A stretch of 32,000 bases of DNA from Thalassolituus maritimus (lineage in GTDB: Bacteria; Pseudomonadota; Gammaproteobacteria; Pseudomonadales; Oceanobacteraceae), in NCBI RefSeq assembly GCF_040372045.1, contig NZ_BAABWH010000005.1, one strand, 5' to 3'. Of the stretch, positions 4,097 to 29,939 are shown piece by piece (position 1 is the stretch's first letter; every line of letters starts with the position of its first letter). The notes under the pieces were generated by a model. The model saw only the letters and a program-made list of their open reading frames with translations, did not search any database and was not told the DNA's origin. A program made the translations under genes and the position numbers.

Positions 4097-4115
4097 GATT
4101 TTTATTCTCCGCAAC

Positions 4116-6968: not shown

Positions 6969-7244
6969 ACATATACCTGTCATGTGTTGTTATGGTTATC
7001 AGATGCGTTGGTACACGCATCCCTTGCGTATATCAGCAATCACCTGACTATAATCCCGTGGCGTCACACCCTCATCGCCCGAAAGTATGATTCGCCTCCT
7101 TAAACCGGGGCATTTTGTATCTGATCGTAATCAAACATAGTTCAAATCCGCCAACCTACCAAACCGAGGGATAGGATTTATACGAGCCTTTGACATAGAA
7201 TAGTCGGCCTTTTAAACCAACCCACCCCGAGACAGGAGATTCCT

Positions 7245-11181: not shown

Positions 11182-12546
11182 TTGGCTAAACAATACGAAT
11201 TGATCCATCCGAAAACCCATCTTCGTGTGTTGTCACAGCATGAAATACAACAACTCAAAGACGTAGGAAGTGGCGCGCATGAGATGCTACGACGCTGTTC
11301 CTTTGCTGTTTTATCTGCCGGTAGCATGGAAGACGATTACACCCGCCTGGAAGAAAGCTATCGCGATTTCAGTATCAGCGTAGAACAGGAAGAGCGTGGC
11401 ATTGTTCTGCAACTCAGTGGTGCTCCCTCTGGCGCGTTTGTCGACGACGAAATTATCCGCGGCGTCAGGGAGCAGCTTTTCTCGGTACTGAGAGACATCC
11501 TCTACGCCGAAGAAAATATTCTTAAAGCCCATCGTTTTGACCTTAGCAAAAGTGAAGACATTACCAATGCCGTCTTTCACATTCTACGCAATGCTAACCT
11601 CCTGCAACCCGACGTCGAACCCAAACTCGTCGTATGCTGGGGAGGACATTCGATTCCACCCAATGAATACCAATACACCAAAGAAGTCGGCTACGAACTA
11701 GGCCTACGCGGTCTCGATATCGGTACCGGGTGTGGACCGGGGGCAATGAAGGGACCAATGAAAGGTGCCACCATCGGACATGCCAAACAGCACATCCGAA
11801 ACGGTCGCTATATCGGCATTACCGAGCCGGGCATTATTGCCGCAGAATCTCCCAACCCGATCGTAAATGAACTGGTTATTCTGCCAGATATAGAAAAGCG
11901 CCTTGAAGCATTCGTACGCATGGCACACGGCATTATTATTTTCCCGGGTGGCCCGGGTACAGCGGAAGAAATTCTCTACATACTTGGTGTGCTTTCACAC
12001 CCAGCCAATAAAGTTATTCCTTATCCATTAGTGATTACAGGACCAGAAGAAACCCGTGATTACCTGATGGACATTGATCGTTTTATTGGCGATACACTCG
12101 GGAAAGAAGCGCAGTCGCGCTACGAACTGATCATTAATGATCCTGTGACCGTCGCCCGTAGAATGAAAGCAGGCATGGAATCTGTACGCCAGTATCGTCG
12201 CGATAATAACGATGCCTACTTCTATAACTGGACATTGAAAATCGACCCTGATTTTCAGGCACCGTTCGAACCTACCCACGAGAATATGAAAACGTTACGA
12301 CTGAACCGCGATGCGCCTTTTCATGAATTAGCTGCAGACCTGAGGCGTGCGTTTTCTGGGATTGTAGCGGGTAACGTTAAGGCTGATGGCGTCGAGTTGG
12401 TACGTAAACATGGTCCTTACGAGATCCATGGTGACGCCGACATCCTTGATGGCATGGACCGATTACTGCGAGCGATGGTTGCCCATGGTCGAATGAAGAT
12501 CAGCGGTAACTACGAACCTTGCTACCGCATCGTAAAAAACGAGTGA
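11182..12546 (+). CDS. ppnN: LOG-family pyrimidine/purine nucleotide 5'-monophosphate nucleosidase (YgdH/PpnN)
   Basis: 454 aa; 'CWGGHSIPPNEYQYTKEVGYELGLRGLDIGTGCGPGAMKGPMKGATIGHAKQ', 'GIIIFPGGPGTAEEILYILG' (PGGxGTxxE). Confidence 0.93.
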   Translation: MAKQYELIHPKTHLRVLSQHEIQQLKDVGSGAHEMLRRCSFAVLSAGSMEDDYTRLEESYRDFSISVEQEERGIVLQLSGAPSGAFVDDEIIRGVREQLFSVLRDILYAEENILKAHRFDLSKSEDITNAVFHILRNANLLQPDVEPKLVVCWGGHSIPPNEYQYTKEVGYELGLRGLDIGTGCGPGAMKGPMKGATIGHAKQHIRNGRYIGITEPGIIAAESPNPIVNELVILPDIEKRLEAFVRMAHGIIIFPGGPGTAEEILYILGVLSHPANKVIPYPLVITGPEETRDYLMDIDRFIGDTLGKEAQSRYELIINDPVTVARRMKAGMESVRQYRRDNNDAYFYNWTLKIDPDFQAPFEPTHENMKTLRLNRDAPFHELAADLRRAFSGIVAGNVKADGVELVRKHGPYEIHGDADILDGMDRLLRAMVAHGRMKISGNYEPCYRIVKNE

Positions 12547-12574
12547 TTTGCTTCACGTGGATCAGCACCCCGCA

Positions 12575-14209
12575 TTAATGCGAGGTTTCCTGAGTAGCGT
12601 GCAACTGAATGCGTTCGGTTGCACGCTGCGATAGGCCCGCGGCATGGTTCATAACGTGAAAAATGACGTTCTGCTCGTTCACACCTGAAATCAACGGCGC
12701 ACCGGGTCCTCGGGCATAAATAGCAACATCCTCGCCGCCATGTGTTTCTGCAGTAAGTGGAACCAGCGCTTCCTGGTGATAGCCGACCGACTGAGTGTCT
12801 ATATCGGTAATGTCCTGACGACCAAAGGTCACTGGTTCTTCATAGACTACCTCAGGGTCTGTCTGAACGCCCAGTGCATAGTGGCCTCGACCGTTCATAT
12901 ACCCCAGAGTCGTATAGGGTTTACCGTCTTCCGCGAGCGTCGGTTCACTTTGCCCAACACCAACGACTTTTCCGAGAATGGGATTGCCGCGCTTGGGGTA
13001 GCCTGCCATTGTAAAAACATGGCTATGATCTGCAGTAACGATAATCAAAGTGTCGTCTTCTGAAGTCATATTTAATGCCATACTGATCGCATTCGAAAAC
13101 TCCCGGGTTTCATGCAGAGCATTAAACGCACTACCGGCGTGGTGCGCGTGATCAATGCGACCCGACTCGACCATAAGAAAGAAGCCTTCCTCGTCCGCGT
13201 CGGCCTGCAACAACTCCAGCGCTTTTTGAGTCATCTCACTCAATGACGGTTCGCCTGCTTTATCATTCTGACGATCGATTTCGAAGCGCATGTGAGTTTC
13301 TTCGAATAAGCCCAGCACAGGCAAAGTCGACAAGGACGCGAAGGTCTCAGAATCAAATGCGAACTGACCAACCGGATTCAGCTTCTGCCACTCAGAAATA
13401 AGATGGCGACCATCTGTGCGGTCACCCTCAGTCTCACTGCGCGCATCTGCGGTATTCGAGGCAGCATCCGCCGGCAGAAAATGTCGACGACCTCCGCCAA
13501 ATGCCACCTCAATACCGTCGACAGCAACTCCATAAGTCGAAGCTGTACGTGTTTTAAAATCAACAAACTGAGACGCAATGTCCACGCAGCCAGCGGCAAC
13601 GGCGTCTTCCGTCATATCGGAAATATCTTCCCAGTTGCGTTCGGCAGAATACGCGTATGTCGCCGCGGGTGTTGCGTGAGTCAGTCGCGCGGTGGTCACA
13701 ATACCGGTTCTCATACCGGCAAGCTCAGCCATTACCAGAGCGGAGGGCATTTGTAACTCTGCCTGATGGCAGGCACCCCGTTGTGCCTCTTCACTCAGGC
13801 CTATCACCCCTGCATCCGTCTTTACGCCTGTCACCATCGCGGTCATAGTGCCAGCCGAATCCGGGGTTTGCGCATCCACGTTGTAGGTTTTACTGAGCCC
13901 AGTAAAGGGTAACGTCTCAAAACTAAGCTGATACTCTTCACCACTCAGCCCCAGTAATTGCCCTGCGTAAATACGCGAAGCCGTCACGGTTGATATTCCC
14001 ATACCGTCGCCTACAAACAGAATGACATTCTTAGCTTGAGTGTTGTCTTTAAGATAGCTGGCTCGCTCCTCGACGGCTTTTTTCCCTGCGATATACCAAG
14101 GGTTAGTCGAATCAAAGAGGTCAATAGAACCAGAAGAGCTACGATCGATATCGGAGCAGCCCGACAGCAGAAATACAGAGGTAAACAGCAAAAGGTGGGA
14201 ATATTTCAT
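12575..14209 (-). CDS. Alkaline phosphatase, predicted lipoprotein
   Basis: ORF 12575..14218, likely start at 14209 (MKYSHLLLFTSVFLLSGCSD, lipobox). 'KNVILFVGDGMGISTVTASRIYAGQ', 'MVESGRIDHAHHAG', 'VTADHSHVFTMAGY', 'THGGEDVAIYARGP' match the alkaline phosphatase (PhoA) superfamily. Confidence 0.93.
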   Translation of the reverse strand: MKYSHLLLFTSVFLLSGCSDIDRSSSGSIDLFDSTNPWYIAGKKAVEERASYLKDNTQAKNVILFVGDGMGISTVTASRIYAGQLLGLSGEEYQLSFETLPFTGLSKTYNVDAQTPDSAGTMTAMVTGVKTDAGVIGLSEEAQRGACHQAELQMPSALVMAELAGMRTGIVTTARLTHATPAATYAYSAERNWEDISDMTEDAVAAGCVDIASQFVDFKTRTASTYGVAVDGIEVAFGGGRRHFLPADAASNTADARSETEGDRTDGRHLISEWQKLNPVGQFAFDSETFASLSTLPVLGLFEETHMRFEIDRQNDKAGEPSLSEMTQKALELLQADADEEGFFLMVESGRIDHAHHAGSAFNALHETREFSNAISMALNMTSEDDTLIIVTADHSHVFTMAGYPKRGNPILGKVVGVGQSEPTLAEDGKPYTTLGYMNGRGHYALGVQTDPEVVYEEPVTFGRQDITDIDTQSVGYHQEALVPLTAETHGGEDVAIYARGPGAPLISGVNEQNVIFHVMNHAAGLSQRATERIQLHATQETSH

Positions 14210-14246
14210 GGTCGTCAACGCCAGTCATGCGAATGACTGCATGGTA

Positions 14247-14921
14247 TCAGTAACGTCTTACAGTGACGACAACCCGACGATCAGCTTCACGTTGATCTTG
14301 AGTGGTAATGTCCCCTTCCAGAACCTTCGGACGACTATCCGCGTAACCCGATGCTTTAAGACGTTCTTTCGCAATTCCAGTTTGCAGTAAATACTTCACG
14401 ACACCGGTCGCGCGGGCCGCAGACAACTCCCAGTTTGAAGGGAATTCATCTGTCGCAATGGGTAAATCGTCGGTGTGCCCTTCCACTTCAATCATATGAG
14501 AGCCATGACTGACGTCTTTGATCACCCTTCCAAGCTCCTGCAACATAGGCTGCGCATCGGGCTTTAGCTGCGCCGACCCTGAATCGTACAGCGCCACATT
14601 TGCAAATTCGACCTGTATACCGCGCGGATCAAGCGTGACCGTTACCTGATCCGCCAACCCATTCTTTTCAACGTACTCGTCGAGCCCCTGCTTAATTTCC
14701 GTAAAAGGCGTCGCATTATTTTCAGATGAAATCACCTCTGCGAGGCCTTCTTTCAAGGACTCGATTTTTCCCTGATTTAAATCCGATACCGCGAGTATCA
14801 TCACGAAAAATGCCAACAGCAACGTAATAGCGTCAGAATACGTCACTAACCAAGAGCTGGAAGAATCATCAAAATTGGGACGACGTCGTCGCAATCCACG
14901 CTGACGAGATGCATGGCTCAT
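14247..14921 (-). CDS. MotB/PomB-like stator protein with C-terminal OmpA-like peptidoglycan-binding domain (non-flagellar context)
   Basis: 224 aa. 'SSSWLVTYSDAITLLLAFFVMILAVSDLNQGKIE' (single N-terminal TM with ion-binding Asp) and 'YDSGSAQLKPDAQPMLQELGRVI...IEVEGHTDDLPI...SNWELSAARATGVVKYL'. Start overlaps the upstream stop (TGATG). Confidence 0.93.
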   Translation of the reverse strand: MSHASRQRGLRRRRPNFDDSSSSWLVTYSDAITLLLAFFVMILAVSDLNQGKIESLKEGLAEVISSENNATPFTEIKQGLDEYVEKNGLADQVTVTLDPRGIQVEFANVALYDSGSAQLKPDAQPMLQELGRVIKDVSHGSHMIEVEGHTDDLPIATDEFPSNWELSAARATGVVKYLLQTGIAKERLKASGYADSRPKVLEGDITTQDQREADRRVVVTVRRY

Positions 14922-15724
14922 CAGAGTTCACCCGATAACACGGGGGTTCGTACAGACGGCTTAAGAAATGCGCTCAGCCTGTCCTGCATATACAGTGCCG
15001 TGCGCTTCTCACTCAACAGGACAAACCCCTCAGACACCAGCTGATGGCGGAAATACATGGTTTCCTGTTTTTCTGTAACCTGATTTGCAGCTGGCTTAAA
15101 AAATAAGTTCGACAGTAAAACACCATACAGCGTCGTGATTAATGCCAAGGCTAGGCCTTTACCCAAACCCGCCATATCCCCATTCAGATTATCCAACATG
15201 ATAATCAACCCGACTATGGTACCCACCATCCCAAAGCCGGGTGAGTACACAGCCATGGTATTCAATACCTTGCCTTCCAACGTGTGGCGCTGCCAGGTTG
15301 CATCCATCTGATCGGTCAACATAGTGCGGATATCATGATTGCTGTAGCCAGCTCCCATGAGATCCAGACCGGCGCGCATAAATTCATCGTTCTGCTCTTG
15401 CTTCGTCAAAGATTGCTCAAGCGCCACAATGCCACCTTGACGATAAATCGTACTCCACTCAACGAAGCGATCCGTCACCTGCTTGAGGTGTTTCTGTGAT
15501 GTTGGCGGGTGAAAGAAGGTGTACAGCATGCTGCGTAAGGCACGAATCACATCCATGGTGGAGTAACTGATTAAGGCTGCCGCCAAGGTACTACCAAACA
15601 CCAGCCCGAAACTGGAAACACTGATAAATATGACATGGTTATCAGTGGCGCTGGCCACTGCGAACACAAGGAGACCAATGCCTGCACAAAAACCAATTAG
15701 CGTACTGAATGAAAAACGGAACAC
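14921..15724 (-). CDS. MotA/PomA-like proton/sodium channel stator protein (non-flagellar context)
   Basis: 267 aa, GTG start with AGGAG RBS. Multi-TM; 'LEGKVLNTMAVYSPGFGMVGTIVGLIIMLDNLNGDMAGLGKGLALALITTLYGVLLSNLFFKPAANQV' matches the MotA/PomA TM3-TM4 block, including both conserved prolines. Confidence 0.93.
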   Translation of the reverse strand: MFRFSFSTLIGFCAGIGLLVFAVASATDNHVIFISVSSFGLVFGSTLAAALISYSTMDVIRALRSMLYTFFHPPTSQKHLKQVTDRFVEWSTIYRQGGIVALEQSLTKQEQNDEFMRAGLDLMGAGYSNHDIRTMLTDQMDATWQRHTLEGKVLNTMAVYSPGFGMVGTIVGLIIMLDNLNGDMAGLGKGLALALITTLYGVLLSNLFFKPAANQVTEKQETMYFRHQLVSEGFVLLSEKRTALYMQDRLSAFLKPSVRTPVLSGEL

Positions 15725-15766
15725 GACGATACTACTCCTTAACTCTTAGCCCCAAACCTTCAGAAC

Positions 15767-17701
15767 CTAGCTCTGCTTCACTTCAGCCAGCTCATCCATA
15801 GAGAAGCGACCTTCACGAATAACATCACGCATTTTTTGCACAACCTGACGACGGGCCGATTCAACCTGATCCTGTGCGGTCGCCGCTTCTGATACTTTCA
15901 GTTCATTAATAATCCCCGCGCGCAACTTGGCGGGCAACGCAGCCAGTACGTAACGTTTAAACTCAATAGACGTATTGCACAGCGACGCAGTTAAAATCGC
16001 GGTATCCAAGGTGCGTAACTCATTAGAAATAATGCGATCTGGTGTCCTGCTCAAATCAGCAAATGTGAAGTACACCTGACGTAAGCGATAGTAGGTTTCC
16101 GGCTTCTCAGACTTGAGTGTTTTAAGCATCCGGGTTTCTTCACTGGTGGTCATCTTATCCAGCATGCCGATTAATACCGACAAACCATCCGCCGTAATAT
16201 TCTCAAACGAAGGGACCGTCAATGACGCTTTGGCCAGGCGATCTGCAACATCTTTAAAAGCCGAGACGGGGAGACTCTCAAATTGTCCCAACTCGAATGC
16301 GATATCCGCCAACTCACGCGAGTCCAGTCGCAGAATAATATCCGCCGACCGCTGGGCCGGTAGCTGCGACATGACTAACGCCTTGATGCGTATATCCTCA
16401 TCCTTAATCAGGAACAGCACCTGGGAGTCGTTCAGTTTATTCAGAAAGGCAAAAGGCTGAGTATTTGAGGCGTCGTCCTGCTGGCGCTCAAGACGTTGAG
16501 AAAACTGCTCCATGCCTTCCGATAACTGCTCTTCATTCCAATCGCCTTCTTGTAGTAAGTCGTCGATCTGTTTCCAGTCTGCTGGCGTGAGATGCGGCGC
16601 CAGACTGGCAAATAAGCTCTTACCCATCGTTGCAGATAACGAAGCAACCTCAAATGCCTGCGCGCTGCCCAAGGCCTGTGACACCGCCTGCTGAAAGCGA
16701 TGTGGCTGCGACAGTCCCTGGCTCACCAGTCGTTGGCGGGATTCATTGATTCGATAACGGAGTGCTGCCGTATCGCCCTCCGACTGGCGGGCAATGCCAG
16801 TTCCCTTAGCCGTGTCAACGGGAGTATCAAGCCCGGGATGAGCTGTGGCCATTGAAGTAATTGGCTGATTGAGACGACGCCACAGTGCAAGGAACGCCAG
16901 CACGAGAAGCAACCCGACAACCAACAGGCTGGCTAACCAAATCCAAGGGGTGTATGCCTCCCAGAAAGAGAGGGGCGTTTCCTCTTTTTTCAGGTGACTA
17001 AAACCTGTTTTGACAATATTTAATGTATCTCCACGGAGTTCATTAATTTGTGCTTTGCGCGTCACCAGGTTTTTCAAAAACTCGATCTGTTCGTCTTCTA
17101 AGCCATTATCGACGACTAATGTAATCTCGAGTTTTTTAATGATATTGCGATAGCCTATGGTTTTCTCCGAGGGCTGACCGGCTTGCGCCTGTTGTTTTTG
17201 CTGTGCCACGTCTTTGAGCTGATCCGCGTAGGAGATAATCTCCTGACGCTCTTTCTCAAGCTGCTGCAGCTGAGAATGCAGCGCACGTAATTTCTCGTTA
17301 TTTTCCTTCAAGAGCGGCATTTCGCTGACAGGCAGACCAGGTAATTCTTCGAGGTCATCCAAATTATTGGATTCAATATCAGGCAGCGAAATACTGCCAC
17401 TGACTCGCGGTTTAGCCGGAAGTTGTGGAGGCTGCTGAGCTGGTGCTGGCTGACCCGATTCACGTACGACGGTGCGTGCGCGTTCAATGACTGCATCAAC
17501 CTGAATAATAAAGCGGTTATTACCGAGATAGGACTCAATATCCTGACGTAAGCGCGCCTCAAGGTCACTGCGAAAACGCGCCTCTTCTACCTCATCTTTT
17601 TTTACCGGCACCTCAAATGTGTCTTGAGAGTGTGCCATGAAGGGTAACATCAGAAGAGAGCAAACAAGCACCCAAAGATAACGACGTATTGAATTCATCA
17701 T
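15767..17701 (-). CDS. Exported/inner-membrane protein with FliF-like periplasmic and TM segment fused to a FliG-like cytoplasmic rotor module
   Basis: ORF 15767..17716 (649 aa from TTG); likely ATG at 17701 with GAGGG upstream. Using the 649-aa numbering: signal-like segment ~7-30; 'LEARLRQDIESYLGNNRFIIQVDA' (FliF ring-like); 'NIIKKLEITLVVDNGLEDEQIEFLKNLVTRKAQINELRGDTLNIVKTGF' (FliF C-terminal ring-like); TM 'PWIWLASLLVVGLLLVLAFLALWRR' (~258-281); 'PFAFLNKLNDSQVLFLIKDEDIRIKALVMSQLPAQRSADIILRLDSRELADIAFELG' (FliG middle); 'VYFTFADLSRTPDRIISNELRTLDTAILTASLCNTSIEFKRYVLAALPAKLRAGIINELK...QVESARRQVVQKMRDVIREGRF' (FliG C-terminal). Confidence 0.85.
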   Translation of the reverse strand: MMNSIRRYLWVLVCSLLMLPFMAHSQDTFEVPVKKDEVEEARFRSDLEARLRQDIESYLGNNRFIIQVDAVIERARTVVRESGQPAPAQQPPQLPAKPRVSGSISLPDIESNNLDDLEELPGLPVSEMPLLKENNEKLRALHSQLQQLEKERQEIISYADQLKDVAQQKQQAQAGQPSEKTIGYRNIIKKLEITLVVDNGLEDEQIEFLKNLVTRKAQINELRGDTLNIVKTGFSHLKKEETPLSFWEAYTPWIWLASLLVVGLLLVLAFLALWRRLNQPITSMATAHPGLDTPVDTAKGTGIARQSEGDTAALRYRINESRQRLVSQGLSQPHRFQQAVSQALGSAQAFEVASLSATMGKSLFASLAPHLTPADWKQIDDLLQEGDWNEEQLSEGMEQFSQRLERQQDDASNTQPFAFLNKLNDSQVLFLIKDEDIRIKALVMSQLPAQRSADIILRLDSRELADIAFELGQFESLPVSAFKDVADRLAKASLTVPSFENITADGLSVLIGMLDKMTTSEETRMLKTLKSEKPETYYRLRQVYFTFADLSRTPDRIISNELRTLDTAILTASLCNTSIEFKRYVLAALPAKLRAGIINELKVSEAATAQDQVESARRQVVQKMRDVIREGRFSMDELAEVKQS

Positions 17702-17712
17702 ATTGCCCTCCC

Positions 17713-18390
17713 TCAACGCAGGCGTGCCAGACTGGCACGTACCTGATCAAGCTCAGGATCGAGTTCGAGCGCCTGTTCCCAGCTTGCCCGCGCCTCTGGA
17801 AGCAAACCCATCTTGTAATAGATACTTCCCTTGAGGGCATGCGCTTGTGCTGAATCCGGAATCAACTCGAGTGCATCATTGGTCTGATCAAGCGCGTCCC
17901 AGTATTCCTTTTTATAAAACAGGCTTTGGGCCGAAAGGATGTGTTTCGTCATCGTTTCGCTACGACTGAGTTTTTCCTTCTGCTGCTCGCTGATTTTTCC
18001 CTCTGCATCAGCGTGATTTTCAGCCGCGATATCACTAGCAGTGCCTTCCATCAGTCCGTCGCTCTGATCTTCCACTTCAGCATGACTCTGCGGCAAATCC
18101 ATAACGAACTTCACATCAGAATCACCCGCATCAATGGTCATCAGAATGTCATACCCTTCACCGTAGCGATGGATGTGCATCAAGCCATGTTGCTTTTTGG
18201 CTTTCTCGACCACCTTCTCCAGTTGAGAGATTTCTTCAACCTCGGCCTCTTCTTCCGGTTCGACAGGCTTCCCCGGATCGACCCATGGGCTTGGGTTAAA
18301 CCCTTTTACCATCTTGTTGGTACGTTCGTGCGAGCAACCCTGAATTCCCAGAGAGACAAGGAGCACGGCAACTATCATTCCTGCTTTCAT
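17713..18390 (-). CDS. TPR-containing lipoprotein, component of the motor-like cluster
   Basis: 225 aa; lipobox MKAGMIVAVLLVSLGIQGC; C-terminal TPR 'AQSLFYKKEYWDALDQTNDALELIPDSAQAHALKGSIYYKMGLLPEARASWEQALELDPELDQVRASLARL'. AGGAGA RBS overlapping the upstream gene's stop. Confidence 0.85.
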   Translation of the reverse strand: MKAGMIVAVLLVSLGIQGCSHERTNKMVKGFNPSPWVDPGKPVEPEEEAEVEEISQLEKVVEKAKKQHGLMHIHRYGEGYDILMTIDAGDSDVKFVMDLPQSHAEVEDQSDGLMEGTASDIAAENHADAEGKISEQQKEKLSRSETMTKHILSAQSLFYKKEYWDALDQTNDALELIPDSAQAHALKGSIYYKMGLLPEARASWEQALELDPELDQVRASLARLR

Positions 18391-18398
18391 ACTATCTC

Positions 18399-19454
18399 CT
18401 AGAATCTCAGACCAAGTGACAAGTCATAGCTCGCACCACCAAGCTTCCCTGTGTCTTCCAGACCAGAAACACTCGTCCATTTCGCTGTGCTTTCCGGCAA
18501 GTACGTCACGCCATAATCAATGAAGCCGTCTTTGAAAAAGGGGAATTCAAAACCAAAACGGAAGACCAGTGCGTTGGTGTCGTTAAAGAACGCCTGCCCC
18601 ATACCCAGATAAACTTTCGTATCGATAAGATCATCCATGCTGGGAATATCAGCGATGATCCTCCCTTCCAGATTTATGCCTGAGATATCGAAGTTTTCGC
18701 GATTAGAGAAATTGCGGAAATACTCGAACGCCAGGGTGTATTGCAACTGATCGTCGAGGCTCGTCGTTTCGCGGCGTCGGATGCCAAATACGGTGACGCC
18801 TTTTACCTCTTCACTGTCTGTACTGGACAGGTGGGCCCGCTCTGCAGAAATTCCCCATGCGCCGACAAGGAATTCATAATTTACGCTGTCAAAGCCCTCT
18901 ACTTCCTGTTCCAGAGTCGTTTTCTTCGAATATTCTTTCAGCCACAGTAATTTGTTGTCGCGGGCATCGACCATACGCAAGTTAATGGTGAATTTGTTCT
19001 GCTCGACTGACGCGTTCCAGAACAAAAAAGCATCCGCTCGCACATGCTGCCCTAGCTTCCGTAACGCCTGATTATCAACAGCGACATGGCTGACCTCGAG
19101 CCGGTCTTCTCGCATTGCTACCTGCGTAGTTCTGCATTCAAGACATTGAATGACTTCAAAACGACCGCTATCCAGCATGCGCTTCATTAGCTTGTTCTCG
19201 ATCATCAAATGAACTTGCTTAGGAATCTTACGGTGCATCCGATCCCCGTTGTGATATAGCGCTACCCGCTTCACGGACTCGGGAAGGTCAATTAACTCTT
19301 CCTTTACCAGCGTTTTGTCGTCATCCAGCAGCTGAGTAAAACCCGTGTACAAAGATGAGCGCATTTCGGGTGGCTCAAGACCGGGAAGAGGTGTCTCTGC
19401 AAGACTGCTGAGCGGTAATAATATTACGGAGAGTAACAGTAACCGTCGGAACAT
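18399..19454 (-). CDS. Predicted outer-membrane protein: CsgG/FlgO-like N-terminal domain plus C-terminal beta-strand-rich region
   Basis: 351 aa; signal peptide MFRRLLLLSVILLPLSSLAE; 'SVKRVALYHNGDRMHRKIPKQVHLMIENKLMKRMLDSGRFEVIQCLECRTT....LRKLGQHVRADAFLFWNASVEQNKFTINLRMVDARDNKLLWLKEY' resembles CsgG/FlgO-type alpha/beta domains. The C-terminal half has alternating amphipathic strands and ends in 'YDLSLGLRF' (terminal Phe typical of BAM substrates). Confidence 0.7.
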   Translation of the reverse strand: MFRRLLLLSVILLPLSSLAETPLPGLEPPEMRSSLYTGFTQLLDDDKTLVKEELIDLPESVKRVALYHNGDRMHRKIPKQVHLMIENKLMKRMLDSGRFEVIQCLECRTTQVAMREDRLEVSHVAVDNQALRKLGQHVRADAFLFWNASVEQNKFTINLRMVDARDNKLLWLKEYSKKTTLEQEVEGFDSVNYEFLVGAWGISAERAHLSSTDSEEVKGVTVFGIRRRETTSLDDQLQYTLAFEYFRNFSNRENFDISGINLEGRIIADIPSMDDLIDTKVYLGMGQAFFNDTNALVFRFGFEFPFFKDGFIDYGVTYLPESTAKWTSVSGLEDTGKLGGASYDLSLGLRF

Positions 19455-19768
19455 CTGGGCATCCTGTATAGGTAAAACGCGAATACAGAGAGCTTAGTTC
19501 AGTACAGTAGACTCAGTTGAGGCGGCGACATTCCAACCTTTTGATTAACAAATGTTTTTTATTTGAAGATAAGATGACCGACAATAATCGAACGTCGTTC
19601 TATTTCACGAACGCCATTGAAATGCCGCAATGTGGAATGCAGCGGTAGGGAACTGGACAGTTTCAGCCGAACGCCAAAAGAGGTACCGAGAAACGACAAA
19701 CCGACGCCATAAAGACGTCAGCTTGTTTTCATTGGTAACAGATTGTCAGAGGTAAGCCGTTGATCTCG

Positions 19769-20065
19769 TCAGTTCGACAGGTGATCACACAAGGCTGCCA
19801 TATCAACATCGCGCTGAGTCACACCGCCGGCATCATGGCTCCACCAGATAACCGTCAATAAGCCCCACGCCACGTTGATTTGAGGGTGATGATCATAATT
19901 CTCGGCGAGTTCAGCTATCTTGCCTGCCAAAGCAAAGGCATCGGCAAAATTAGCAAAGGTCCAGGTTCGACAGAGGCAGGGGATGTCCTCCATTGTACCA
20001 ATGTGCCACTCAGGACGACTCAAGAGCTGAGATGTGAGTTCTTCGTGTGTCAGTACATCAGACAT
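19769..20065 (-). CDS. phhB: 4a-hydroxytetrahydrobiopterin (pterin-4-alpha-carbinolamine) dehydratase
   Basis: 98 aa; 'WTFANFADAFALAGKIAELAENYDHHPQINVAWGLLTVIWWSHDAGGVTQRDVDMAALCD' matches the PCD family. Confidence 0.88.
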   Translation of the reverse strand: MSDVLTHEELTSQLLSRPEWHIGTMEDIPCLCRTWTFANFADAFALAGKIAELAENYDHHPQINVAWGLLTVIWWSHDAGGVTQRDVDMAALCDHLSN

Positions 20066-20105
20066 ACAACCTCCGGGAAAGAAGTGAATGAGTCCTTACT
20101 CTGAC

Positions 20106-20135
20106 AAAAAAGGAGAGCAATTGCTCTCCTTTTTT
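20106..20135. terminator. Bidirectional Rho-independent terminator between fumarase and phhB
   Basis: Perfect palindrome AAAAAAGGAGAGCAA/TTGCTCTCCTTTTTT. Confidence 0.92.
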
Positions 20136-20174
20136 CGTATCAGGACAGGTCAAAGAATCCTTAGGAGGAAATCC

Positions 20175-21683
20175 TCAGACCTCGGTCGCGTTGATTCGCG
20201 CGAACCACTCCTGAGGGCCCGTCTGGTGAACGGACTCGCCTTTGCTGTCTACCGCTACGGTAACTGGCATATCTTCGACTTCAAACTCGTAGATAGCTTC
20301 CATGCCCAAGTCGTCAAAGCCGACAACCTTAGCGCCTTTAATCGCTTGAGATACCAGGTACGCAGCACCACCAACAGCCATCAGATAAACAGCTTCGTTG
20401 TCACGAATCGCATCAATAGCAATCGGACCACGTTCTGCTTTACCGATCATCCCCAGCAGACCGGTCTCCTCGAGCACAGTACGGGTGAATTTATCCATAC
20501 GCGTCGCGGTTGTCGGGCCCGCAGGACCTACGACTTCTTCGCGCACCGGATCAACCGGACCGACGTAGTAAATAAAACGACCTTTCAGATCAACTGGAAG
20601 CTCTTCGCCTTTCGAAATCATGTCGACCATACGCTTGTGCGCCGCATCACGGCCAGTCAGCATCTTACCGGACAACAAAACTGTCTCACCCGGCTGCCAG
20701 TCTTTCACATCTTCTGGAGTCACAGTGTCGAGGTTTACACGGCGAACGCTGTCACCGACTTCCCAGCTGATTTCTGGCCAGTCTTCAAGCTTAGGCGCTT
20801 TCAGAGAAGCAGGGCCGGAACCGTCCAACTCGAAATGCGTGTGACGGGTTGCAGCACAGTTCGGGATAATCGCAACAGGCTTATTCGCTGCATGCGTTGG
20901 GTAATCGGCGACTTTGATGTCGAGAACCGTGGTCAAACCACCCAGTCCCTGAGCACCAATACCCAGCTTGTTTACTTTCTCGTAGAGTTCGAGACGCAGT
21001 TCTTCCGCACGGTTTTCTGCACCGCGAGCCTGAAGTTCCTGAATATTAACCGGCTCAAGCAGCGCTTCTTTGGCAATCTGCATCGCTTTCTCAGCCGTAC
21101 CGCCAATACCAATGCCCAGCATACCCGGTGGACACCAGCCTGCACCCATCTTCGGCACCTGCTCAAGTACCCAATCAACAATCGAGTCTGATGGATTCAG
21201 CATCGCGAACTTTGATTTCGCCTCTGAACCACCGCCTTTCGCTGCAACATGAACATCAACCGTGCTGCCCGGTACTAATTTCATGTGAATGATGGCTGGC
21301 GTATTGTCTTTGGTGTTTGCACGCTTGCCATCCGGATCAGCGAGTACGGACGCACGGAGTACATTGTCAGGATGCGTATAAGCACGGCGAACGCCTTCGT
21401 TGCACATGTCTTCGACGCTCATATCACCCTCGAACTTCACATCCATACCGATGTTGAGGAAGACCGTTACGATACCCGTGTCCTGACAAATTGGACGTTT
21501 CCCCATCGCACACATACGTGAATTGATCAGAATCTGAGCCATGGCGTCTTTCGCTGCCTTGGATTCCTCACGCTCATAGGCCTGGTGTACGGCATCAATG
21601 AAGTCTTTCGGGTGGTAGTAGGAAATGTATTGCAAAGCGTCAGCAACGCTCTGAATCAGATCCTCTTGCTTTATCACGGTCAT
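20175..21683 (-). CDS. fumA: Fumarate hydratase class I (iron-sulfur, single-chain)
   Basis: 502 aa; 'RPICQDTGIVTVFLNIGMDVKFEG', 'AKGGGSEAKSKFAMLNPSDSIVDWVLEQVPKMGAGWCPPGMLGIGIGGTAEKAM', 'GAQGLGGLTTVLDIKVADYPTHAANKPVAIIPNCAATRHTHFELDGSG'. Confidence 0.96.
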   Translation of the reverse strand: MTVIKQEDLIQSVADALQYISYYHPKDFIDAVHQAYEREESKAAKDAMAQILINSRMCAMGKRPICQDTGIVTVFLNIGMDVKFEGDMSVEDMCNEGVRRAYTHPDNVLRASVLADPDGKRANTKDNTPAIIHMKLVPGSTVDVHVAAKGGGSEAKSKFAMLNPSDSIVDWVLEQVPKMGAGWCPPGMLGIGIGGTAEKAMQIAKEALLEPVNIQELQARGAENRAEELRLELYEKVNKLGIGAQGLGGLTTVLDIKVADYPTHAANKPVAIIPNCAATRHTHFELDGSGPASLKAPKLEDWPEISWEVGDSVRRVNLDTVTPEDVKDWQPGETVLLSGKMLTGRDAAHKRMVDMISKGEELPVDLKGRFIYYVGPVDPVREEVVGPAGPTTATRMDKFTRTVLEETGLLGMIGKAERGPIAIDAIRDNEAVYLMAVGGAAYLVSQAIKGAKVVGFDDLGMEAIYEFEVEDMPVTVAVDSKGESVHQTGPQEWFARINATEV

Positions 21684-23289: not shown

Positions 23290-23784
23290 ATGCCAAGTGT
23301 CGTTATAAGTGCAGCGGTGCTCTTACTGCTGTGCTCTGGGGCCAGCGTAGCAGGAAATAAGTCAGCAACCGCTGAAGATTTTCGAAAAGCGCAGGACGAT
23401 TACTATGCCAGTGATCTTGATGCCGCCATCACCGAAGCACGCGAACGTACTCATCACTACGACTACAGCAGTGAATTTCGCTACGACCGCACTACGTCGC
23501 AAAGTATTCGTTTCTCACGCATGAGAAACAATGAACTTGAGCAACAGCGCATAGAAACCGCATCCTTGGCACCGACCAGTTCAGGTAACTCTGAAGACAC
23601 CGAATATAGTGCTGAAGGTAGTGCGGAAGTTAGTGGCGAATGGAATGCTGATGGCACCGAAGACGGTTTCCCGACCGACTTATTAGAACGTAATGACGTA
23701 CTGCCAACCACGGTCAGCCCAGCTGCCAGCCAGCAGATACAGCTGCCATCCAGTGGCATTCAAGTTCAAGTTAATGTGCGCTGA
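23290..23784 (+). CDS. Small exported hypothetical protein, member B of a tandem paralogous pair
   Basis: ORF 23236..23784; ATG at 23290, 10 bp after the previous stop, gives signal peptide MPSVVISAAVLLLLCSGASVAG; 'YSSEFRYDRTTSQSIRFSRMRNNELEQQRIE' aligns with 'VGYEWYNRTTSKSFPLPKMLNTEMNDLVIE' of the upstream gene. Confidence 0.75.
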   Translation: MPSVVISAAVLLLLCSGASVAGNKSATAEDFRKAQDDYYASDLDAAITEARERTHHYDYSSEFRYDRTTSQSIRFSRMRNNELEQQRIETASLAPTSSGNSEDTEYSAEGSAEVSGEWNADGTEDGFPTDLLERNDVLPTTVSPAASQQIQLPSSGIQVQVNVR

Positions 23785-24628
23785 GCTCCAGCCTCTGGCG
23801 AATAATACTCCGCGCTTTCTGCCCCATCACCAGTAACCTGCGATCACGCTGCCAGTAGTCCGCCGCTGCCGCAGGCAAAGCCGCAGCAACCGTCATCAGC
23901 TCTTCGGCAAGTGCTTCAAAGGCGTTTAACTGCTCCAGACAATAACCTTTCGACGACATCCGGTAACCACCGGCCAATGCCTGCATCACCGTCACCAGCT
24001 TGCTTTGATCTGACGCACTGTCTGACATCCTCAGACACCAGCCGGAAAACGCAAGTATGGTCATTACATCTTCATGGTATCGGAACGGCTTATTAATTTC
24101 GTTGTGCGCGTCGGCACAGTGAAAATGCGAGTCAACATGCGCCTCATTAAACTCGAGTGCGTGATGAGCTAACTCAGGAACCACGGGTTGCGCTGGGTCA
24201 GACGGTAATACAGAGACACCCTGCTCACCCGCCTTTACCCGACGACAAACCAGATCAGATTGGTCACGAGCAATGATATAGAGCCAGTCCATACCACTGT
24301 CGGCCAGCATAGCGTGACTCTTCCTACCCGATATCACGCCATTGTCTATGCAAGTAGACATTTCTGAGAGCGAGCGCAAGCCCTTTTCAGACACACAAAG
24401 ACATGCCCATTGCTCTGGAGACAGTGAAGAATCGACCGCGCGCATAGCAACCTGATAGCCGGCGAGAAATGCCGATGCAGGGATATCGGAACGCAACCCA
24501 GAAATAATGGCTGCCTCCGCAGGTTCTGAGGTTCGTAGTAATCGTGCCAGGTTCATCCTTAACGTATATGGCGTCGTCACTGAGAGTGCAGGCAAGCTCA
24601 GTGCCTGCACCCAGAGATCTGGCATCAT
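23771..24628 (-). CDS. Acyl-CoA dehydrogenase-like protein (short/divergent)
   Basis: 285 aa; 'CVSEKGLRSLSEMSTCIDNGVISGRKSHAMLADSGMDWLYIIARDQSDLVCRRV' resembles the ACAD middle domain, and the C-terminal half is helical like the ACAD C-terminal bundle. Overlaps the convergent gene end by 14 bp. Confidence 0.55.
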   Translation of the reverse strand: MMPDLWVQALSLPALSVTTPYTLRMNLARLLRTSEPAEAAIISGLRSDIPASAFLAGYQVAMRAVDSSLSPEQWACLCVSEKGLRSLSEMSTCIDNGVISGRKSHAMLADSGMDWLYIIARDQSDLVCRRVKAGEQGVSVLPSDPAQPVVPELAHHALEFNEAHVDSHFHCADAHNEINKPFRYHEDVMTILAFSGWCLRMSDSASDQSKLVTVMQALAGGYRMSSKGYCLEQLNAFEALAEELMTVAAALPAAAADYWQRDRRLLVMGQKARSIIRQRLELSAH

Positions 24629-24634
24629 GTGTAA

Positions 24635-25456
24635 TTAACCACCGCTCATTGCGTTCTGAATACGATCCAGACGGATCTGGATATCTTCGATTTCCAGTTT
24701 CATATTCAACAGATCGTTGTAACCCGCACCGCCACCACTGGCCGGAGCAGCCTTCTGACTATCCACTGTGGTACGAAGACTGTTAACGCTGGCTTCCAGC
24801 ATATCGATGCCTTCTTTATTCTGGGCAATAGATAACTCCAACCCAGAAGGCATAGCTGCCACACTGTTCTTTAATTCAGCCAGTTGTGCTTTCAATGCTT
24901 TGATATCGGAAGAACTCGCTCCTGAAGCACTGTTCACCGCAGAGCTGAGATTATTGAGTTTGGCTGCATTGGCATCAATATCCGCACGATTACGCTTGCT
25001 CGCCAAATCCCATAATTTCCGGATTTCGTTGTCCTGTTCACGCAAGACTACTTTAAGTGCATCTACCGAAAGATTCGCGTTTTCACCCGACGCCGAGAGA
25101 CGATTTTCAAGCGCTTCGATCTTACCGCCCTGCAGCAACAGAATATCCTGAGCAGCGGTCAGCTTCTGCTGAGATGACTCCAATAAAGTGTACATATATC
25201 CAGCGCCCGCCAGAGCACCGAGGGCGACGAGGAGGCTGACAACCGCCAAGCCCGATGAGCCCGATGAGCCTGAAGACCGCTGCACCGGTGCCGCCGCTGC
25301 AGTTGTCGCCTGTGCTGTTGGCGCTGTTGCTGCAGCAGTTAAGGGGTCAGTAGCCGGCGCACTGCGTTTCGCAGCACCTGCCTGTGCCAGACGTTGTTGA
25401 GCCTGACGACGAAGCTGCTGTTGCCGCTGCGCAATCTCTTCCTCTGTTGGTTTCAT
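24635..25456 (-). CDS. Single-pass membrane protein with coiled-coil periplasmic region
   Basis: ORF 24635..25465, likely ATG at 25456 (MKPTEEEIAQRQQQLRRQAQQRL...). Low-complexity Ala/Thr/Pro linker, TM 'LAVVSLLVALGALAGAGYMYTLL', then long heptad-like helices. Confidence 0.7.
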   Translation of the reverse strand: MKPTEEEIAQRQQQLRRQAQQRLAQAGAAKRSAPATDPLTAAATAPTAQATTAAAAPVQRSSGSSGSSGLAVVSLLVALGALAGAGYMYTLLESSQQKLTAAQDILLLQGGKIEALENRLSASGENANLSVDALKVVLREQDNEIRKLWDLASKRNRADIDANAAKLNNLSSAVNSASGASSSDIKALKAQLAELKNSVAAMPSGLELSIAQNKEGIDMLEASVNSLRTTVDSQKAAPASGGGAGYNDLLNMKLEIEDIQIRLDRIQNAMSGG

Positions 25457-25800
25457 TCGATACACCTTTTCTTGTTATTCCGTCCGGGTGACTGAACAGC
25501 GTGCTTCCCCAAAAGCTCAGTCACTACGACGCTTCGTTCGCGCTTCAATCTACGCGATACCCTTATGACTTTGAACCGTTAGTTTCCCTGATTGTCTACC
25601 GGTTGGCAATTTGTAAAGAAATGCTCAAGAAGACCTGTTAAATTTGAATCGAAACAAGGCCGTAGCCACGACAGACAGCGGCGTTATAATCTTTAGAATT
25701 ATTCAATAACGGAGCATTGAAATAGTACGAAACGACCCCATGTAGGTCACAACGGACATTTCAATAAATCCGGCAACCAACCTGAAATCGGAGAGAGACC

Positions 25801-27127: not shown

Positions 27128-29026
27128 TTATTTCTGAACAGGCAGTCCCTGGAACAGGCGTTCAAGCTGCATATCAGCTTCATCAACACCCAACTCTTCC
27201 GACACTGTAAACTCCCAGATGCCGTTGAATTTATCACGGGTCAGCGTCTTGGCTTTACCACCGTCATCGACAATGGTCGGGCGCAAGAACACCATCAGAT
27301 TACTCTTCACCTGATTAACGCTCTTAGAGCGGAACAACCAACCCAGTAATGGAATATCACCCAACAGAGGTACCTTGCTCACCACTTCACGAACGTCGTC
27401 ACGGATCAGACCACCCAACACGATCGTCTCACCGTCCTCAGACAGAATCATGGTTTTAATAGAGCGCTTGTTGGTAATCAGGTCAGCACTGCCAGCAACG
27501 GTAGTATTGGATACAGATTCCGCTGTCGCTTCCACTTCCAGTCGGATCGCCTCACCGTCGTGAATGTGAGGAATCACTTTCAACGTAACACCCACGTCCT
27601 GTCGATCAATTGTGGTGAATGGGTTTGTGTTGGTACTGGATGCTGTTTGCCCGGTCACGAAGGGAACATTCTGACCCACAACAATCTCAGCTTCCTGGTT
27701 GTCCAGCGTCATGATGCTCGGAGTCGACAACAGGTTGGTCGACGAATTACTTTTCAGAGCCTGAATAATGACACCGAAATCGATATCGCCACCAGACTCT
27801 TTAAACCCACCAATGGTCAGACCCGAGCCTACCGCGTTGGCGTAAGTTGATGGCCCGCCCGCCACTGCACCGGCAATGGTCGCAAGGTCTGGTCCGGCAT
27901 TGTTAAAGCTGGTTCCGGCAACAGGGGAGTCCAGATCACCACGAACCCACTGCACACCCAGTGCATCGCTGGTGTCGCCTGTCACTTCGATAATTGCCGA
28001 TTCAATCAGTACTTGCGCGCGACGTACATCGAGTGAATTAACCAGTTCCTGTACTTCTTTAAGGATAGAAGGCTCAGCACGCACAACGAGCGCATTCAGC
28101 TCTTCATCCGCGTGAATACCAACCTCGCCTTTCACCTTGGCTTCTTCGCCCGAACCCGTGCTGCTACCCATCAGGTTCTTCAACATCTCAGCCAGCTTGG
28201 TGGCATCGGCGTATTGCAGACGAATAACCTGAGCACTGCCGCTGAAATATGAAGGCTGGTCGAGCTGTTCGATCAGACCGCGGATACGCTCACGCGCCGT
28301 TTTCTCACCCTTGATGATAAGACGATTGCTACGCTCGTCTGCCACAACACGGATACTGCCAGCGGTGTTGTTATTGTCCGTATTTCCCTGAGAGACCTTC
28401 GATGGATCGAGGCTCTGCAACATGGTCACAACGTTGCCCACCCAGGCTTCTTTAAGCTGAATAACTTCAAGCTCTTCAGATCCTGAACGGTCAAGGCGGT
28501 CTATGATTTCCTCGATACGATTAATATTGATCGCGTGATCAGAAATAATCAGCGCGTTGGCCGATTTCACACCGGCCAGATGACCGTATTTCGCCACCAG
28601 AGGGCGAAGGATCGGCACCAGATCCAGCGCAGGCGTGTTCTTGATCATAATGACCTTAGTCAGCAACTCCTGACTGTCGACACCCGCTCGCTCTTCAAGG
28701 CTACGACCCGCTTGCTTCACATCGTTCTGCTGGATAATCAGCGTCACATCACCGGCGGGAACCGCCGCAAGACCATGAATCTGCAATACCGACAGGAAAA
28801 GTTCATAGACACCTTCCTGATTCATCGGCTCACTGGAGAGCACGCTGACCTTGCCTTTCACACGCGGATCAAGGACAAAACTTTTCCCTGTAATATCGGC
28901 AACCTGACTGATAAACGCTTCTATGTCCGCGTCCTTCAGATTGATCTGCCAGCTTTCATTCGCTTGCAGTGGCATCGCCATGCTTGCCATCAATAACATG
29001 GCCATCAGCCAACGTCTGAGCAACAT
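27128..29026 (-). CDS. gspD: Type II secretion system secretin GspD
   Basis: 632 aa; signal peptide; N0/N-domain 'INLKDADIEAFISQVADITGKSFVLDPRVKGKVSVLS', secretin domain 'VPLLGDIPLLGWLFRSKSVNQVKSNLMVFLRPTIV'. Confidence 0.97.
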   Translation of the reverse strand: MLLRRWLMAMLLMASMAMPLQANESWQINLKDADIEAFISQVADITGKSFVLDPRVKGKVSVLSSEPMNQEGVYELFLSVLQIHGLAAVPAGDVTLIIQQNDVKQAGRSLEERAGVDSQELLTKVIMIKNTPALDLVPILRPLVAKYGHLAGVKSANALIISDHAININRIEEIIDRLDRSGSEELEVIQLKEAWVGNVVTMLQSLDPSKVSQGNTDNNNTAGSIRVVADERSNRLIIKGEKTARERIRGLIEQLDQPSYFSGSAQVIRLQYADATKLAEMLKNLMGSSTGSGEEAKVKGEVGIHADEELNALVVRAEPSILKEVQELVNSLDVRRAQVLIESAIIEVTGDTSDALGVQWVRGDLDSPVAGTSFNNAGPDLATIAGAVAGGPSTYANAVGSGLTIGGFKESGGDIDFGVIIQALKSNSSTNLLSTPSIMTLDNQEAEIVVGQNVPFVTGQTASSTNTNPFTTIDRQDVGVTLKVIPHIHDGEAIRLEVEATAESVSNTTVAGSADLITNKRSIKTMILSEDGETIVLGGLIRDDVREVVSKVPLLGDIPLLGWLFRSKSVNQVKSNLMVFLRPTIVDDGGKAKTLTRDKFNGIWEFTVSEELGVDEADMQLERLFQGLPVQK

Positions 29027-29919: not shown

Positions 29920-29939
29920 TATTAATCAAAGCGCTCAGG

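Follow-up and report, generated by a model that had tools for sequence, protein, structure and literature searches.

What might a bacterium do with the rotor of a flagellar motor that is encoded away from the rest of the flagellum? The question is raised by a 32,000-nucleotide stretch of the Thalassolituus maritimus genome (contig NZ_BAABWH010000005.1, assembly GCF_040372045.1; hereafter 'the window', always meaning the whole stretch), in which one gene, located at 15767..17701 on the minus strand, encodes counterparts of the rotor proteins FliF and FliG in a single polypeptide. An earlier note on this DNA had drawn attention to the fusion; it was silent on the strand and made no mention of the MotA/MotB, lipoprotein and outer-membrane genes of the same operon. 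This minus-strand operon (19454-14247) encodes, in order, an outer-membrane protein (OMP), a tetratricopeptide repeat (TPR) lipoprotein, the fusion protein, and MotA-like and MotB-like stator subunits, and the operon context is the most informative part of the finding. Our preferred reading, to which we give a probability of roughly 60%, is that the five genes use parts of the flagellar motor to make a self-contained rotor-stator machine, driven by ions, that does not itself belong to a flagellum.

The fusion gene is listed among the open reading frames (ORFs) of the window as 15767..17716, that is, as a 649-amino-acid (aa) product initiating at TTG. We prefer the ATG at 17701 as the start, because it has a GGGAGGG Shine-Dalgarno site 5 nt upstream, because the nearest homologues of the resulting protein are, like it, 644 aa long, and because the TTG shares nucleotides with the stop codon (TGA) of the gene upstream; the fusion gene's own stop codon is at 15767-15769. 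The end coordinate of the earlier note, 17701, thus fits the ATG and the 644-aa product, and its '649-aa numbering' has to be dropped, as it comes from the TTG at 17716. Residues are numbered here from the ATG, and adding 5 gives the numbers of the note. A sequence check located all four peptide stretches quoted there in the protein, among them KKLEITLVV...KTGF (189-234), the transmembrane (TM) stretch PWIWLAS...LWRR (252-276) and SLFASLAPHL...FSQRL (362-404).

An assembly artefact is excluded because the architecture recurs: more than 120 full-length homologues with 27–98% identity share it, as do about 138 of the best 150 cluster representatives, which are 480–780 aa long (most of them 550–720 aa) and have the same layout. 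These representatives come from an exhaustive search of 1.84 billion cluster representatives (clusters at 50% identity), in which the fusion family accounts for at least 184 clusters at E ≤ 1e-30. A signal-peptide-like start is combined with one TM helix at about residues 200–300 in most of the best 150, and in the family alignment more than 60 invariant positions are retained by homologues down to 30% identity. The automatic annotation of the homologues is 'flagellar motor switch protein FliG'.

The N-terminal half of the protein is FliF-like, as the earlier note had proposed. Pfam family PF08345 matches the T. maritimus protein alone at E 0.0025 (18.7 bits, under the 23.8 cut-off; model positions 75–147) and is precomputed in many of its homologues. 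A profile built from 19 homologues and searched against PDB sequences aligned positions 41–329 to residues 234–537 of Salmonella FliF (6scn, E 4e-11), and a profile of the N-terminal half alone had FliF as its sole significant match (E 3e-10), with positions 39–329 covered over both profile searches. The matched region of FliF spans the third ring-building motif (RBM3), the second TM helix (TM2) and much of the cytoplasmic tail. Furthermore, a Foldseek search with an AlphaFold2 (AF2) model (mean predicted local distance difference test score, pLDDT, 73.8, with individual domains confident) returned a block of FliF RBM3/S-ring structures at E 8e-4 to 7e-3 and probability 1.0, followed by weaker matches to PrgK (0.13) and SpoIIIAG (0.76).

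Read along the chain (all coordinates on the minus strand), the protein opens with residues 1–25 (17627..17701; MMNSIRRYLWVLVCSLLMLPFMAHS followed by QD), which look like a signal peptide: the uncharged stretch is only 18 residues long and leads to an AHS-Q site, in which A occupies position -3 and S position -1. The hydrophobic (h-) regions of the family are mostly 11–18 residues long and an AXA-like site is present in 106/130 members, a pattern in keeping with the cleavable signal peptide predicted earlier; cleavage itself is putative. The first half of an RBM3-like domain follows at residues 28–80 (17462..17620): a strand, helix 37–59 and hairpin 64–80, modelled with pLDDT 82–87 and aligned to Salmonella FliF starting at residue 234. 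The domain is then interrupted by an insertion of about 100 residues (81–178; 17168..17461), which occupies the site of the FliF β-collar but is predicted to be non-β: AF2 suggests disorder and then a 45-residue helix (128–173). Within the insertion lies an LPGLP motif (residues 120–124; 17330-17344), which is invariant in three family alignments (A1, A2 and A6) and reads LPGFP in the split homologues described below. The second half of the RBM3-like domain, residues 179–234 (17000..17167; strands 179–198, helix 203–217, strand 226–232), includes an invariant RGD and, like the corresponding part of FliF ahead of TM2, finishes with ...TGF; it aligns to FliF 382–438 in the profile search and matches a split FliF-like protein in BLASTP at E 3e-5.

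A single TM helix at residues 250–277 (16871..16954; AF2 helix 251–277) is the equivalent of FliF TM2, and a hydropathy peak is found at this position in nearly all members of the family. Beyond it, a cytoplasmic linker and FliF-C-like helices occupy residues 278–345 (16667..16870), with 278–304 disordered and the helices at 305–345. The helices carry a conserved RQxLVSxGLxQPxxFQQ motif, in which R322, Q323, G329, L330, P333 and Q337 are nearly invariant, and the alignment of the family to FliF reaches into the tail region, up to FliF 534–537. RBM1/RBM2 (PF01514) gave no match at E ≤ 1 in this protein or in eight other family members, and the periplasmic part amounts to only about 215 residues. 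The earlier description of a single TM after the FliF-like part and of a reduced periplasmic region therefore agrees with what we find.

The C-terminal half, for which a likeness to FliG had been claimed, contains complete FliG N, M and C domains by Pfam, alignment and Foldseek. The 19-homologue profile matched Aquifex FliG (3hjl) at E 3.5e-24 over positions 424–634 versus 117–327, and Foldseek aligned the model to full-length 3hjl (1.4e-9, 320 aligned columns). The FliG_M domain comprises residues 416–500 (16202..16456; Pfam E 2.7e-11, with HMMER alignments to 3hjl and 1lkv) and FliG_C residues 501–644 (15770..16201; Pfam E 9.3e-15); in the 649-aa frame, the Pfam matches fall at 431–500 and 533–639, and both exceed the gathering scores. 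The FliG_N-like domain, residues 346–415 (16457..16666), is defined by the Foldseek match, which covers all of 3hjl, and by alignment to a stand-alone homologue, P0185. This 310-aa protein consists of FliG_N (Pfam E 4e-20), FliG_M and FliG_C, matches the FliG_N chain of a FliF_C-FliG_N complex (PDB 5tdy_B) at E 1.5e-6, and aligns through its residues 14–305 to residues 353–640 of the fusion protein (E 5e-41). Finally, P0189, a fused relative from another clade, scores 30.8 bits for FliG_N at the expected place.

P0185 also bears on how the fusion is put together. A few family matches are only 304–311 aa long and have a FliG-like start, and the gene for P0185 lies directly downstream of, and overlaps, a gene for a 382-aa protein that matches the whole PF08345 model at E 4.7e-10. 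Split FliF-like proteins of this kind align end-to-end to positions 5–310 of the fusion-family profile (E 1e-34 and 1e-31) and stop just past ...VGNPETATNILNNWMS, the counterpart of fusion residues 329–345; in a single-sequence PDB search, a split FliF-like protein gave marginal FliF matches (E 0.03–0.3). From these protein ends and the P0185 alignment it follows that the fusion consists of a FliF-like protein, running from RBM3 to the C-terminus, joined head-to-tail to a whole FliG. That it is a natural fusion, as the earlier note had supposed, is borne out by the other lineages, in which the FliF-like and FliG-like parts are encoded by adjoining separate genes. The split homologues end in ...NPxxxxxxxxxW, which resembles what we take to be the FliF C-terminus and might, by this resemblance, serve to bind FliG_N. 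The split loci themselves (L064 3273-11081, L065 1195-9026, L066 1716-9547 and also L008) have the FliF-like (382 or 504 aa) and FliG-like (306–310 aa) genes after MotA, MotB and three TPR proteins; they also encode a lipoprotein of 326–345 aa that is unrelated to the OMP at 18399..19454.

In spite of its automatic annotation, the fusion protein scores 62.1 bits against the FliG equivalog model TIGR00207, for which the cut-off is 226.7. Judged by these comparisons, it is not the host's flagellar FliF or FliG; it descends from FliF and FliG and would work like them, and stands outside both orthologous families. The residues that matter in a FliG are retained in part. The FliM-binding EHPQR motif is replaced by DEDIR (434–438), with E435 and R438 alone kept. 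The Gly-Gly hinge is kept as DG (505–506; G506 is invariant, within ADGL), and the MFXF hinge has its counterpart in YFTF (544–547), aligned to MFVF of Thermotoga maritima FliG. On the torque helix, K592, N599 and E600 hold the positions that we take to be those of R281, D288 and D289 of E. coli FliG. In the flagellar motor these residues form charge pairs with the stator, MotA R90 with FliG D288/D289 and MotA E98 with FliG R281 (PMC12505986, PMC7564593). The R281-equivalent is basic in 60/60 loci.

The operon supplies this putative rotor with a stator of its own. Its first four genes lie 8, 11 and 42 nt apart, and MotA and MotB overlap by 1 nt. The MotA-like protein (267 aa; 14921..15724, minus strand) contains Pfam MotA_ExbB and is of the flagellar, PomA/MotP-like type: its best PDB matches, at E 9e-32 to 1e-25, are all to flagellar MotA or PomA, ExbB and TolQ being absent from the matches, and its best NCBIfam matches are MotP, PomA and MotA, all of them sub-cut-off (166.6 bits versus 394 for MotP). 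In its YRQGGIVALE segment, the spacing from R to E is 8, as between R90 and E98 of the E. coli protein. The MotB-like protein (224 aa; 14247..14921, minus strand) contains Pfam MotB_plug and OmpA: a TM helix that carries the essential Asp is combined with a plug and with an OmpA-like domain of the kind that binds peptidoglycan; its PDB matches are MotB, MotS and PomB (E 1e-26), and the Asp, within Y[SAG]D, is invariant across 42 loci. We also considered the Zorya defence system and rejected it: PADLOC returned no ZorA match for the MotA-like or the other genes, and the MotB-like protein has a generic ZorB/MotB similarity only.

The two genes upstream of the fusion encode envelope proteins. The TPR lipoprotein (225 aa; 17713..18390, minus strand) has a GIQG-C lipobox with Ser at +2, followed by a domain conserved among its homologues and, at the C-terminus, by TPR repeats (Pfam TPR_1, E 6e-10); the Cys after the signal peptide is present in 6/6 homologues inspected. 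A hidden Markov model (HMM) of its family places the gene beside that of the fusion at almost every locus; in a split operon, its match is a TPR protein of 460 aa, of which it covers the C-terminal domain. The OMP (351 aa; 18399..19454, minus strand), encoded by the first gene of the operon, has a counterpart near the fusion gene at most loci; it starts with a Sec signal peptide and is 100% identical to a T. maritimus protein annotated as hypothetical. Its AF2 model (pLDDT 75.5) predicts a periplasmic α/β domain followed by a C-terminal β-barrel of 8–10 strands that ends in ...GLRF, with the terminal Phe. Foldseek matches the N-terminal domain to TolB (TolB-N), LpoB, GNA1162, PelC and FlgT, and the barrel to NspA, Ail, OmpX, OmpA and OmpW. 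There is no significant Pfam match, nor any significant match of the OMP-family profile among PDB sequences; weak sequence matches are to FlgO (best E 7e-4, in 3/5 members) and LpoB (E 0.03).

A non-coding stretch of 314 bp (19455..19768, minus strand) lies upstream of the operon and is presumably its promoter region; no sigma-70-like site and no sigma-54 or sigma-28 consensus was found in it. The sigma-70 consensus scan of 12300-20300 as a whole likewise returned 0 sites, compared to 7.5 ± 2.4 in shuffled sequences. At the other end of the operon, the MotB-like gene is followed after 28 bp by a gene for a 547-aa alkaline phosphatase (12575-14218, minus strand; PF00245, E 2e-123), which may be co-transcribed with it. 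A functional link between the two was rejected: this neighbour is not conserved at other module loci.

How far does the five-gene module extend beyond T. maritimus? The named hosts of the family are Thalassolituus, Oleispira (including O. antarctica RB-8), Bermanella, Vibrio nigripulchritudo, and one deltaproteobacterial and one gammaproteobacterial metagenome-assembled genome (MAG). A contig search with the single fusion protein as the query found two loci only, both of the Thalassolituus family, and a tblastn search of plasmids had no match. The gene order of the window, OMP-TPR-fusion-MotA-MotB, is shared by Thalassolituus pacificus L001, by L002, by the Bermanella loci L004/L005 and by L010; the order is MotA-MotB-OMP-TPR-fusion in a gammaproteobacterial MAG (L003), the fusion protein of which is 27% identical to ours, and fusion-OMP-TPR-MotA-MotB in L007. 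L006 has TPR-fusion-MotA-MotB, with the OMP gene undetected. A metagenome scan with alignment A6, representing a distant clade, yielded 53 loci, and we counted the 35 with at least 3.7 kb of sequence downstream. All five genes are present in 28 of the 35, always as fusion-OMP-TPR-MotA-MotB, and in two the gene in the OMP position went undetected. The loci range in GC content from 28 to 70%, and the housekeeping genes in their flanks are unrelated to the module and change from one locus to the next. Genes for flagellar export, rod, hook and C-ring components, including FliM and FliN, were found neither in the window nor in about 65 related loci.

This conservation is hard to square with the notion that the module is the decayed, now functionless remnant of a duplicated flagellar gene cluster. 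One might read decay into the sub-cut-off scores for FliG, MotA and MotB and into the loss of the FliM-binding motif and RBM1/RBM2. However, the ORFs are intact and tightly coupled and the fusion gene has a strong ribosome-binding site; the family retains its more than 60 invariant positions down to 30% identity, spans at least 184 clusters and keeps the essential MotB Asp invariant; and the five-gene set has been kept through three gene orders. We consider this explanation highly improbable, and close to refuted already.

In favour of a motor, the stator bears all the marks of an ion-driven MotA5B2 unit held on peptidoglycan, and in dozens of lineages its cognate partner, a complete FliG with hinges and an invariantly basic torque-helix residue, is encoded next to it. 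If the operon indeed encodes a motor, it could work as follows. The signal peptide would export the N-terminus of the fusion protein, which would then span the inner membrane once. Its RBM3-like periplasmic domain would oligomerise into a ring, as in the FliF, SctJ and SpoIIIAG rings, and the covalently attached FliG (N, M and C) would form a cytoplasmic ring with the torque helix exposed. Units of the MotA5MotB2 type would be anchored to peptidoglycan via the OmpA-like domain of MotB and would pass ions by way of the invariant MotB Asp. MotA would turn on the FliG_C ring, its R and E facing K592 and E600, and the ring would rotate in the membrane. Since FliM, FliN and an intact EHPQR motif are missing, rotation would be unidirectional and free of CheY control; since RBM1/RBM2, export gate, rod and hook are missing, nothing would be exported through the ring. 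Output would instead be transmitted by the periplasmic insertion, with its LPGLP motif and long helix, to the TPR lipoprotein and the PelC/FlgT-like barrel protein. As to what this output achieves physiologically, our guess, by analogy with GldLM of the type IX secretion system (T9SS) and with Agl-Glt, is the moving or remodelling of envelope or surface components.

Several observations weigh against this reading. A ring tethered to the outer membrane can rotate freely only if its partners move or slip. The full-length AF2 model has a predicted template modelling (pTM) score of 0.29, which limits confidence to single domains. Outside the clade of the T. maritimus protein, the charge pairs vary: the MotA R90-equivalent may be R, Q or K and the E98-equivalent D, S or E, while in FliG most loci have Ser for D288 and an acidic residue takes the place of D289 in 31/60; because the MotA residues and the acidic FliG residues both vary, the alignments do not demonstrate that the electrostatic MotA-FliG interface is conserved. 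In five of the 35 counted metagenome loci (L053–L057), the genes for fusion, OMP and TPR protein have no MotAB beside them. Finally, Thalassolituus, Oleispira, Bermanella and Vibrio are all flagellated, so the distribution of the module among the named hosts does not prove its independence from flagella.

The first of these points opens the way to a force or signal transducer that does without continuous rotation: the fusion protein, as a ring or a smaller oligomer, would be a fixed dock that gates MotAB-type channels and pulls on the TPR and OMP partners, energising the envelope in the manner of ExbBD-TonB or TolQR-TolA-Pal or sensing the state of the envelope or surface. Tethering by two outer-membrane components, for which free rotation is awkward, is readily accommodated here, as are the partly conserved torque charge pairs and the short invariant LPGLP, a type of motif often bound by TPR domains; moreover, the other non-flagellar relatives of MotAB are all transducers of force to the envelope (PMC9389320). 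Against a transducer, the stator, which has a plug and a domain for binding peptidoglycan, belongs to the flagellar rather than the ExbBD/TolQR type; its partner is a complete FliG with its hinges kept (YFTF and DG) and an invariantly basic R281-equivalent; the RBM3 domain is known from large rings only; and the operon encodes no TonB- or TolA-like protein that would span the periplasm. On balance, we regard a non-rotating transducer as unlikely.

The flagellated hosts, in turn, suggest that the five proteins might be accessory or alternative parts of the ordinary polar flagellar motor: an extra ring, a condition-specific rotor-stator or a scaffold for stators (compare the H and T rings of Vibrio and PflA/PflB of Campylobacter). 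TPR proteins scaffold stators in some polar motors, the OMP is weakly FlgO- and FlgT-like, the automatic annotation is FliG, and the named hosts are, as is generally known, flagellated marine bacteria. Against this, the fusion protein could not house the export gate without RBM1/RBM2, its own FliG would compete with the FliG bound to FliF, and it falls far under the FliG equivalog cut-off. Nor do the loci look flagellar: flagellar genes are absent from the window and the approximately 65 related loci, the upstream region has no sigma-28 or sigma-54 consensus, the GC content of the loci runs from 28 to 70%, and the SusC-like neighbours of one group suggest a member of Bacteroidota, a phylum that lacks flagella. 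A role within the polar motor thus appears quite unlikely.

The free-standing machine that we favour can also be stated more boldly, as a widespread rotary nanomachine in which a FliF(RBM3)-FliG ring is spun by MotAB and coupled to the outer membrane, with neither a secretion system nor a filament, and which is either a pared-down offshoot of the flagellar motor with a new role in the envelope or a surviving relative of the rotor-stator core from before that core was joined to type III export. We put this broader version forward tentatively, as possible and rather doubtful in its full extent.

At some loci the genes next to the module are of interest in their own right. In L003 (10614-16819), the most distant of the gammaproteobacterial relatives, the module lies directly upstream of a polysaccharide export cluster, seen at no other locus, which encodes a BBP2_2 barrel, a Wza-like Poly_export protein, a Wzc-like Wzz/GNVR kinase and Wzy_C; a Sel1/SPOR protein precedes the module. 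In L006 (11496-14573), the module is followed by a MoxR-type AAA ATPase, DUF58 and VWA proteins (Bat/aerotolerance-like) and a pilin-like gene. The loci L053–L057 (for example, L053 5671-9538 and 10899-13637) have a low GC content of 0.34, and within 4 kb downstream no MotA or MotB was found; the next large gene is for a TonB-dependent receptor that is SusC-like and contains a CarboxypepD_reg domain, as is typical of Bacteroidota. If these loci are bacteroidotal, as their neighbours suggest, they would place a rotor-like protein in a phylum that lacks flagella, perhaps with another motor.

How does the module compare to known systems? It shares with the rotor and stator of the flagellum (FliF, FliG and MotA5MotB2 or PomAB) the RBM3 and TM helix, followed by a candidate FliG-binding tail; the armadillo domains N, M and C of FliG with their hinges and a putative torque helix; the R and E of the MotA loop; and the Asp, plug and OmpA-like domain of MotB. 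Unlike in the flagellar motor, the rotor is one polypeptide without RBM1/RBM2 and, as predicted, without a β-collar, its N-terminus looks like a signal peptide instead of TM1, EHPQR is degenerate, no FliM, FliN, export gate, rod, hook or filament genes are associated, there are dedicated outer-membrane partners, and all module parts score under the equivalog cut-offs.

A natural FliF-FliG fusion has a precedent in the Chlamydiaceae, where a protein of about 330 aa combines RBM2 and one RBM-like domain with two TM helices and a FliG_M-like part only; no MotAB is associated with it and it is thought to act with the injectisome (PMC4768692, Bergeron 2016). Like ours, it is a natural single chain with a reduced FliF periplasmic region, a TM segment and a FliG-derived cytoplasmic part, in organisms that lack most flagellar genes; compared by its published description, it differs from the 644-aa protein studied here, which has RBM3, one TM helix, FliG N, M and C, and a stator of its own. 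What appears to be undescribed is therefore the module rather than the fusion as such. Engineered fusions are known for Salmonella and Vibrio: a full-frame FliF-FliG fusion is reported to assemble rings (PMC6079021; see also Thomas et al. 2001, as cited in PMC4768692), and a Vibrio FliF-FliG fusion, 8z4d/8z4g, was among our profile matches in the PDB. These share with the natural protein a covalent 1:1 link compatible with ring assembly; unlike it, they are laboratory constructs with full-length FliF in complete flagella.

Among non-flagellar machines, the partners of Agl-Glt include TPR proteins and β-barrels. GldLM (T9SS/gliding), AglRQS-Glt, ExbBD-TonB, TolQR-TolA-Pal and ZorAB all resemble the module in that an inner-membrane ion motor is encoded with envelope-spanning or outer-membrane partners (PMC9389320). 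These 5:2 motors belong to the non-flagellar branch and have no FliG or FliF-type ring, whereas the stator here is of the flagellar type; a review of 5:2 motors lists no FliG-coupled non-flagellar system (PMC9389320), and a stator phylogeny treats the MotAB/PomAB-type clade as flagellum-specific (PMC12505986). The TolB-N/LpoB/PelC/FlgT-like domain of the OMP and the TPR lipoprotein recall the accessory rings of polar flagella (FlgO/FlgP/FlgT in Vibrio, PflA/PflB in Campylobacter) and PelC/CsgG-type rings, with the difference that the likeness of the OMP is at the level of fold or marginal (FlgO, E 7e-4 at best). We found no described counterpart of its combination of a PelC/FlgT-like domain with a small β-barrel. 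Likewise, full-text literature searches, including one for 'FliG-like', returned no description of the module within their coverage, to which subscription-only papers do not belong.

To our knowledge, torque generation between FliG and MotA has always been tied to a type III export machine. If the rotary reading is true, the FliG-MotA torque interface functions outside flagella and 'flagellar-type' stators are not specific to the flagellum. The module bears on the long-standing question of the origin of the flagellar motor, since, as an outgroup or as a derived lineage, it could give a direction to the evolution of FliF, FliG and MotAB, and it provides a test of rotor-stator function without the rest of the flagellum. 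For structural biology and biophysics, it would also supply a minimal rotor made by nature, in which the fusion fixes the stoichiometry of FliF to FliG at 1:1, and it is present in cultured, tractable Thalassolituus, Oleispira antarctica and Vibrio nigripulchritudo. On the practical side, annotation of such genes as FliG could inflate genome-based predictions of motility.

Elsewhere in the window, a strong GC-rich hairpin (aaaaaaggagagcaattgctctcctttttt; 20100-20135, minus strand) with flanking runs of A and T lies just past a fumarase gene and looks like a bidirectional intrinsic terminator, though it was not listed by the terminator scan. With one mismatch allowed, GCCGATAA occurs 35 times in the whole window, as compared to 20.7 ± 4.0 times in shuffled sequences (0/100 of which reach 35), and nowhere upstream of the operon; the excess is probably an effect of codon usage or composition. 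Two adjacent ORFs of 285 and 276 aa (23771-25465, minus strand) match no Pfam family; one of them has a weak coiled-coil (intermediate-filament) match. Further along, type II secretion genes resembling gspN, gspC and gspD (T2SSN, T2SSC with PDZ, and secretin) are found at 27128-30719 on the minus strand. Finally, a DUF1329 (LolA-like) and DUF1302 outer-membrane pair at 810-6983, also on the minus strand, lies downstream of a 955-aa lipase-like protein (Lipase_bact_N) and could relate to the uptake of hydrophobic substrates in this oil-degrading genus.

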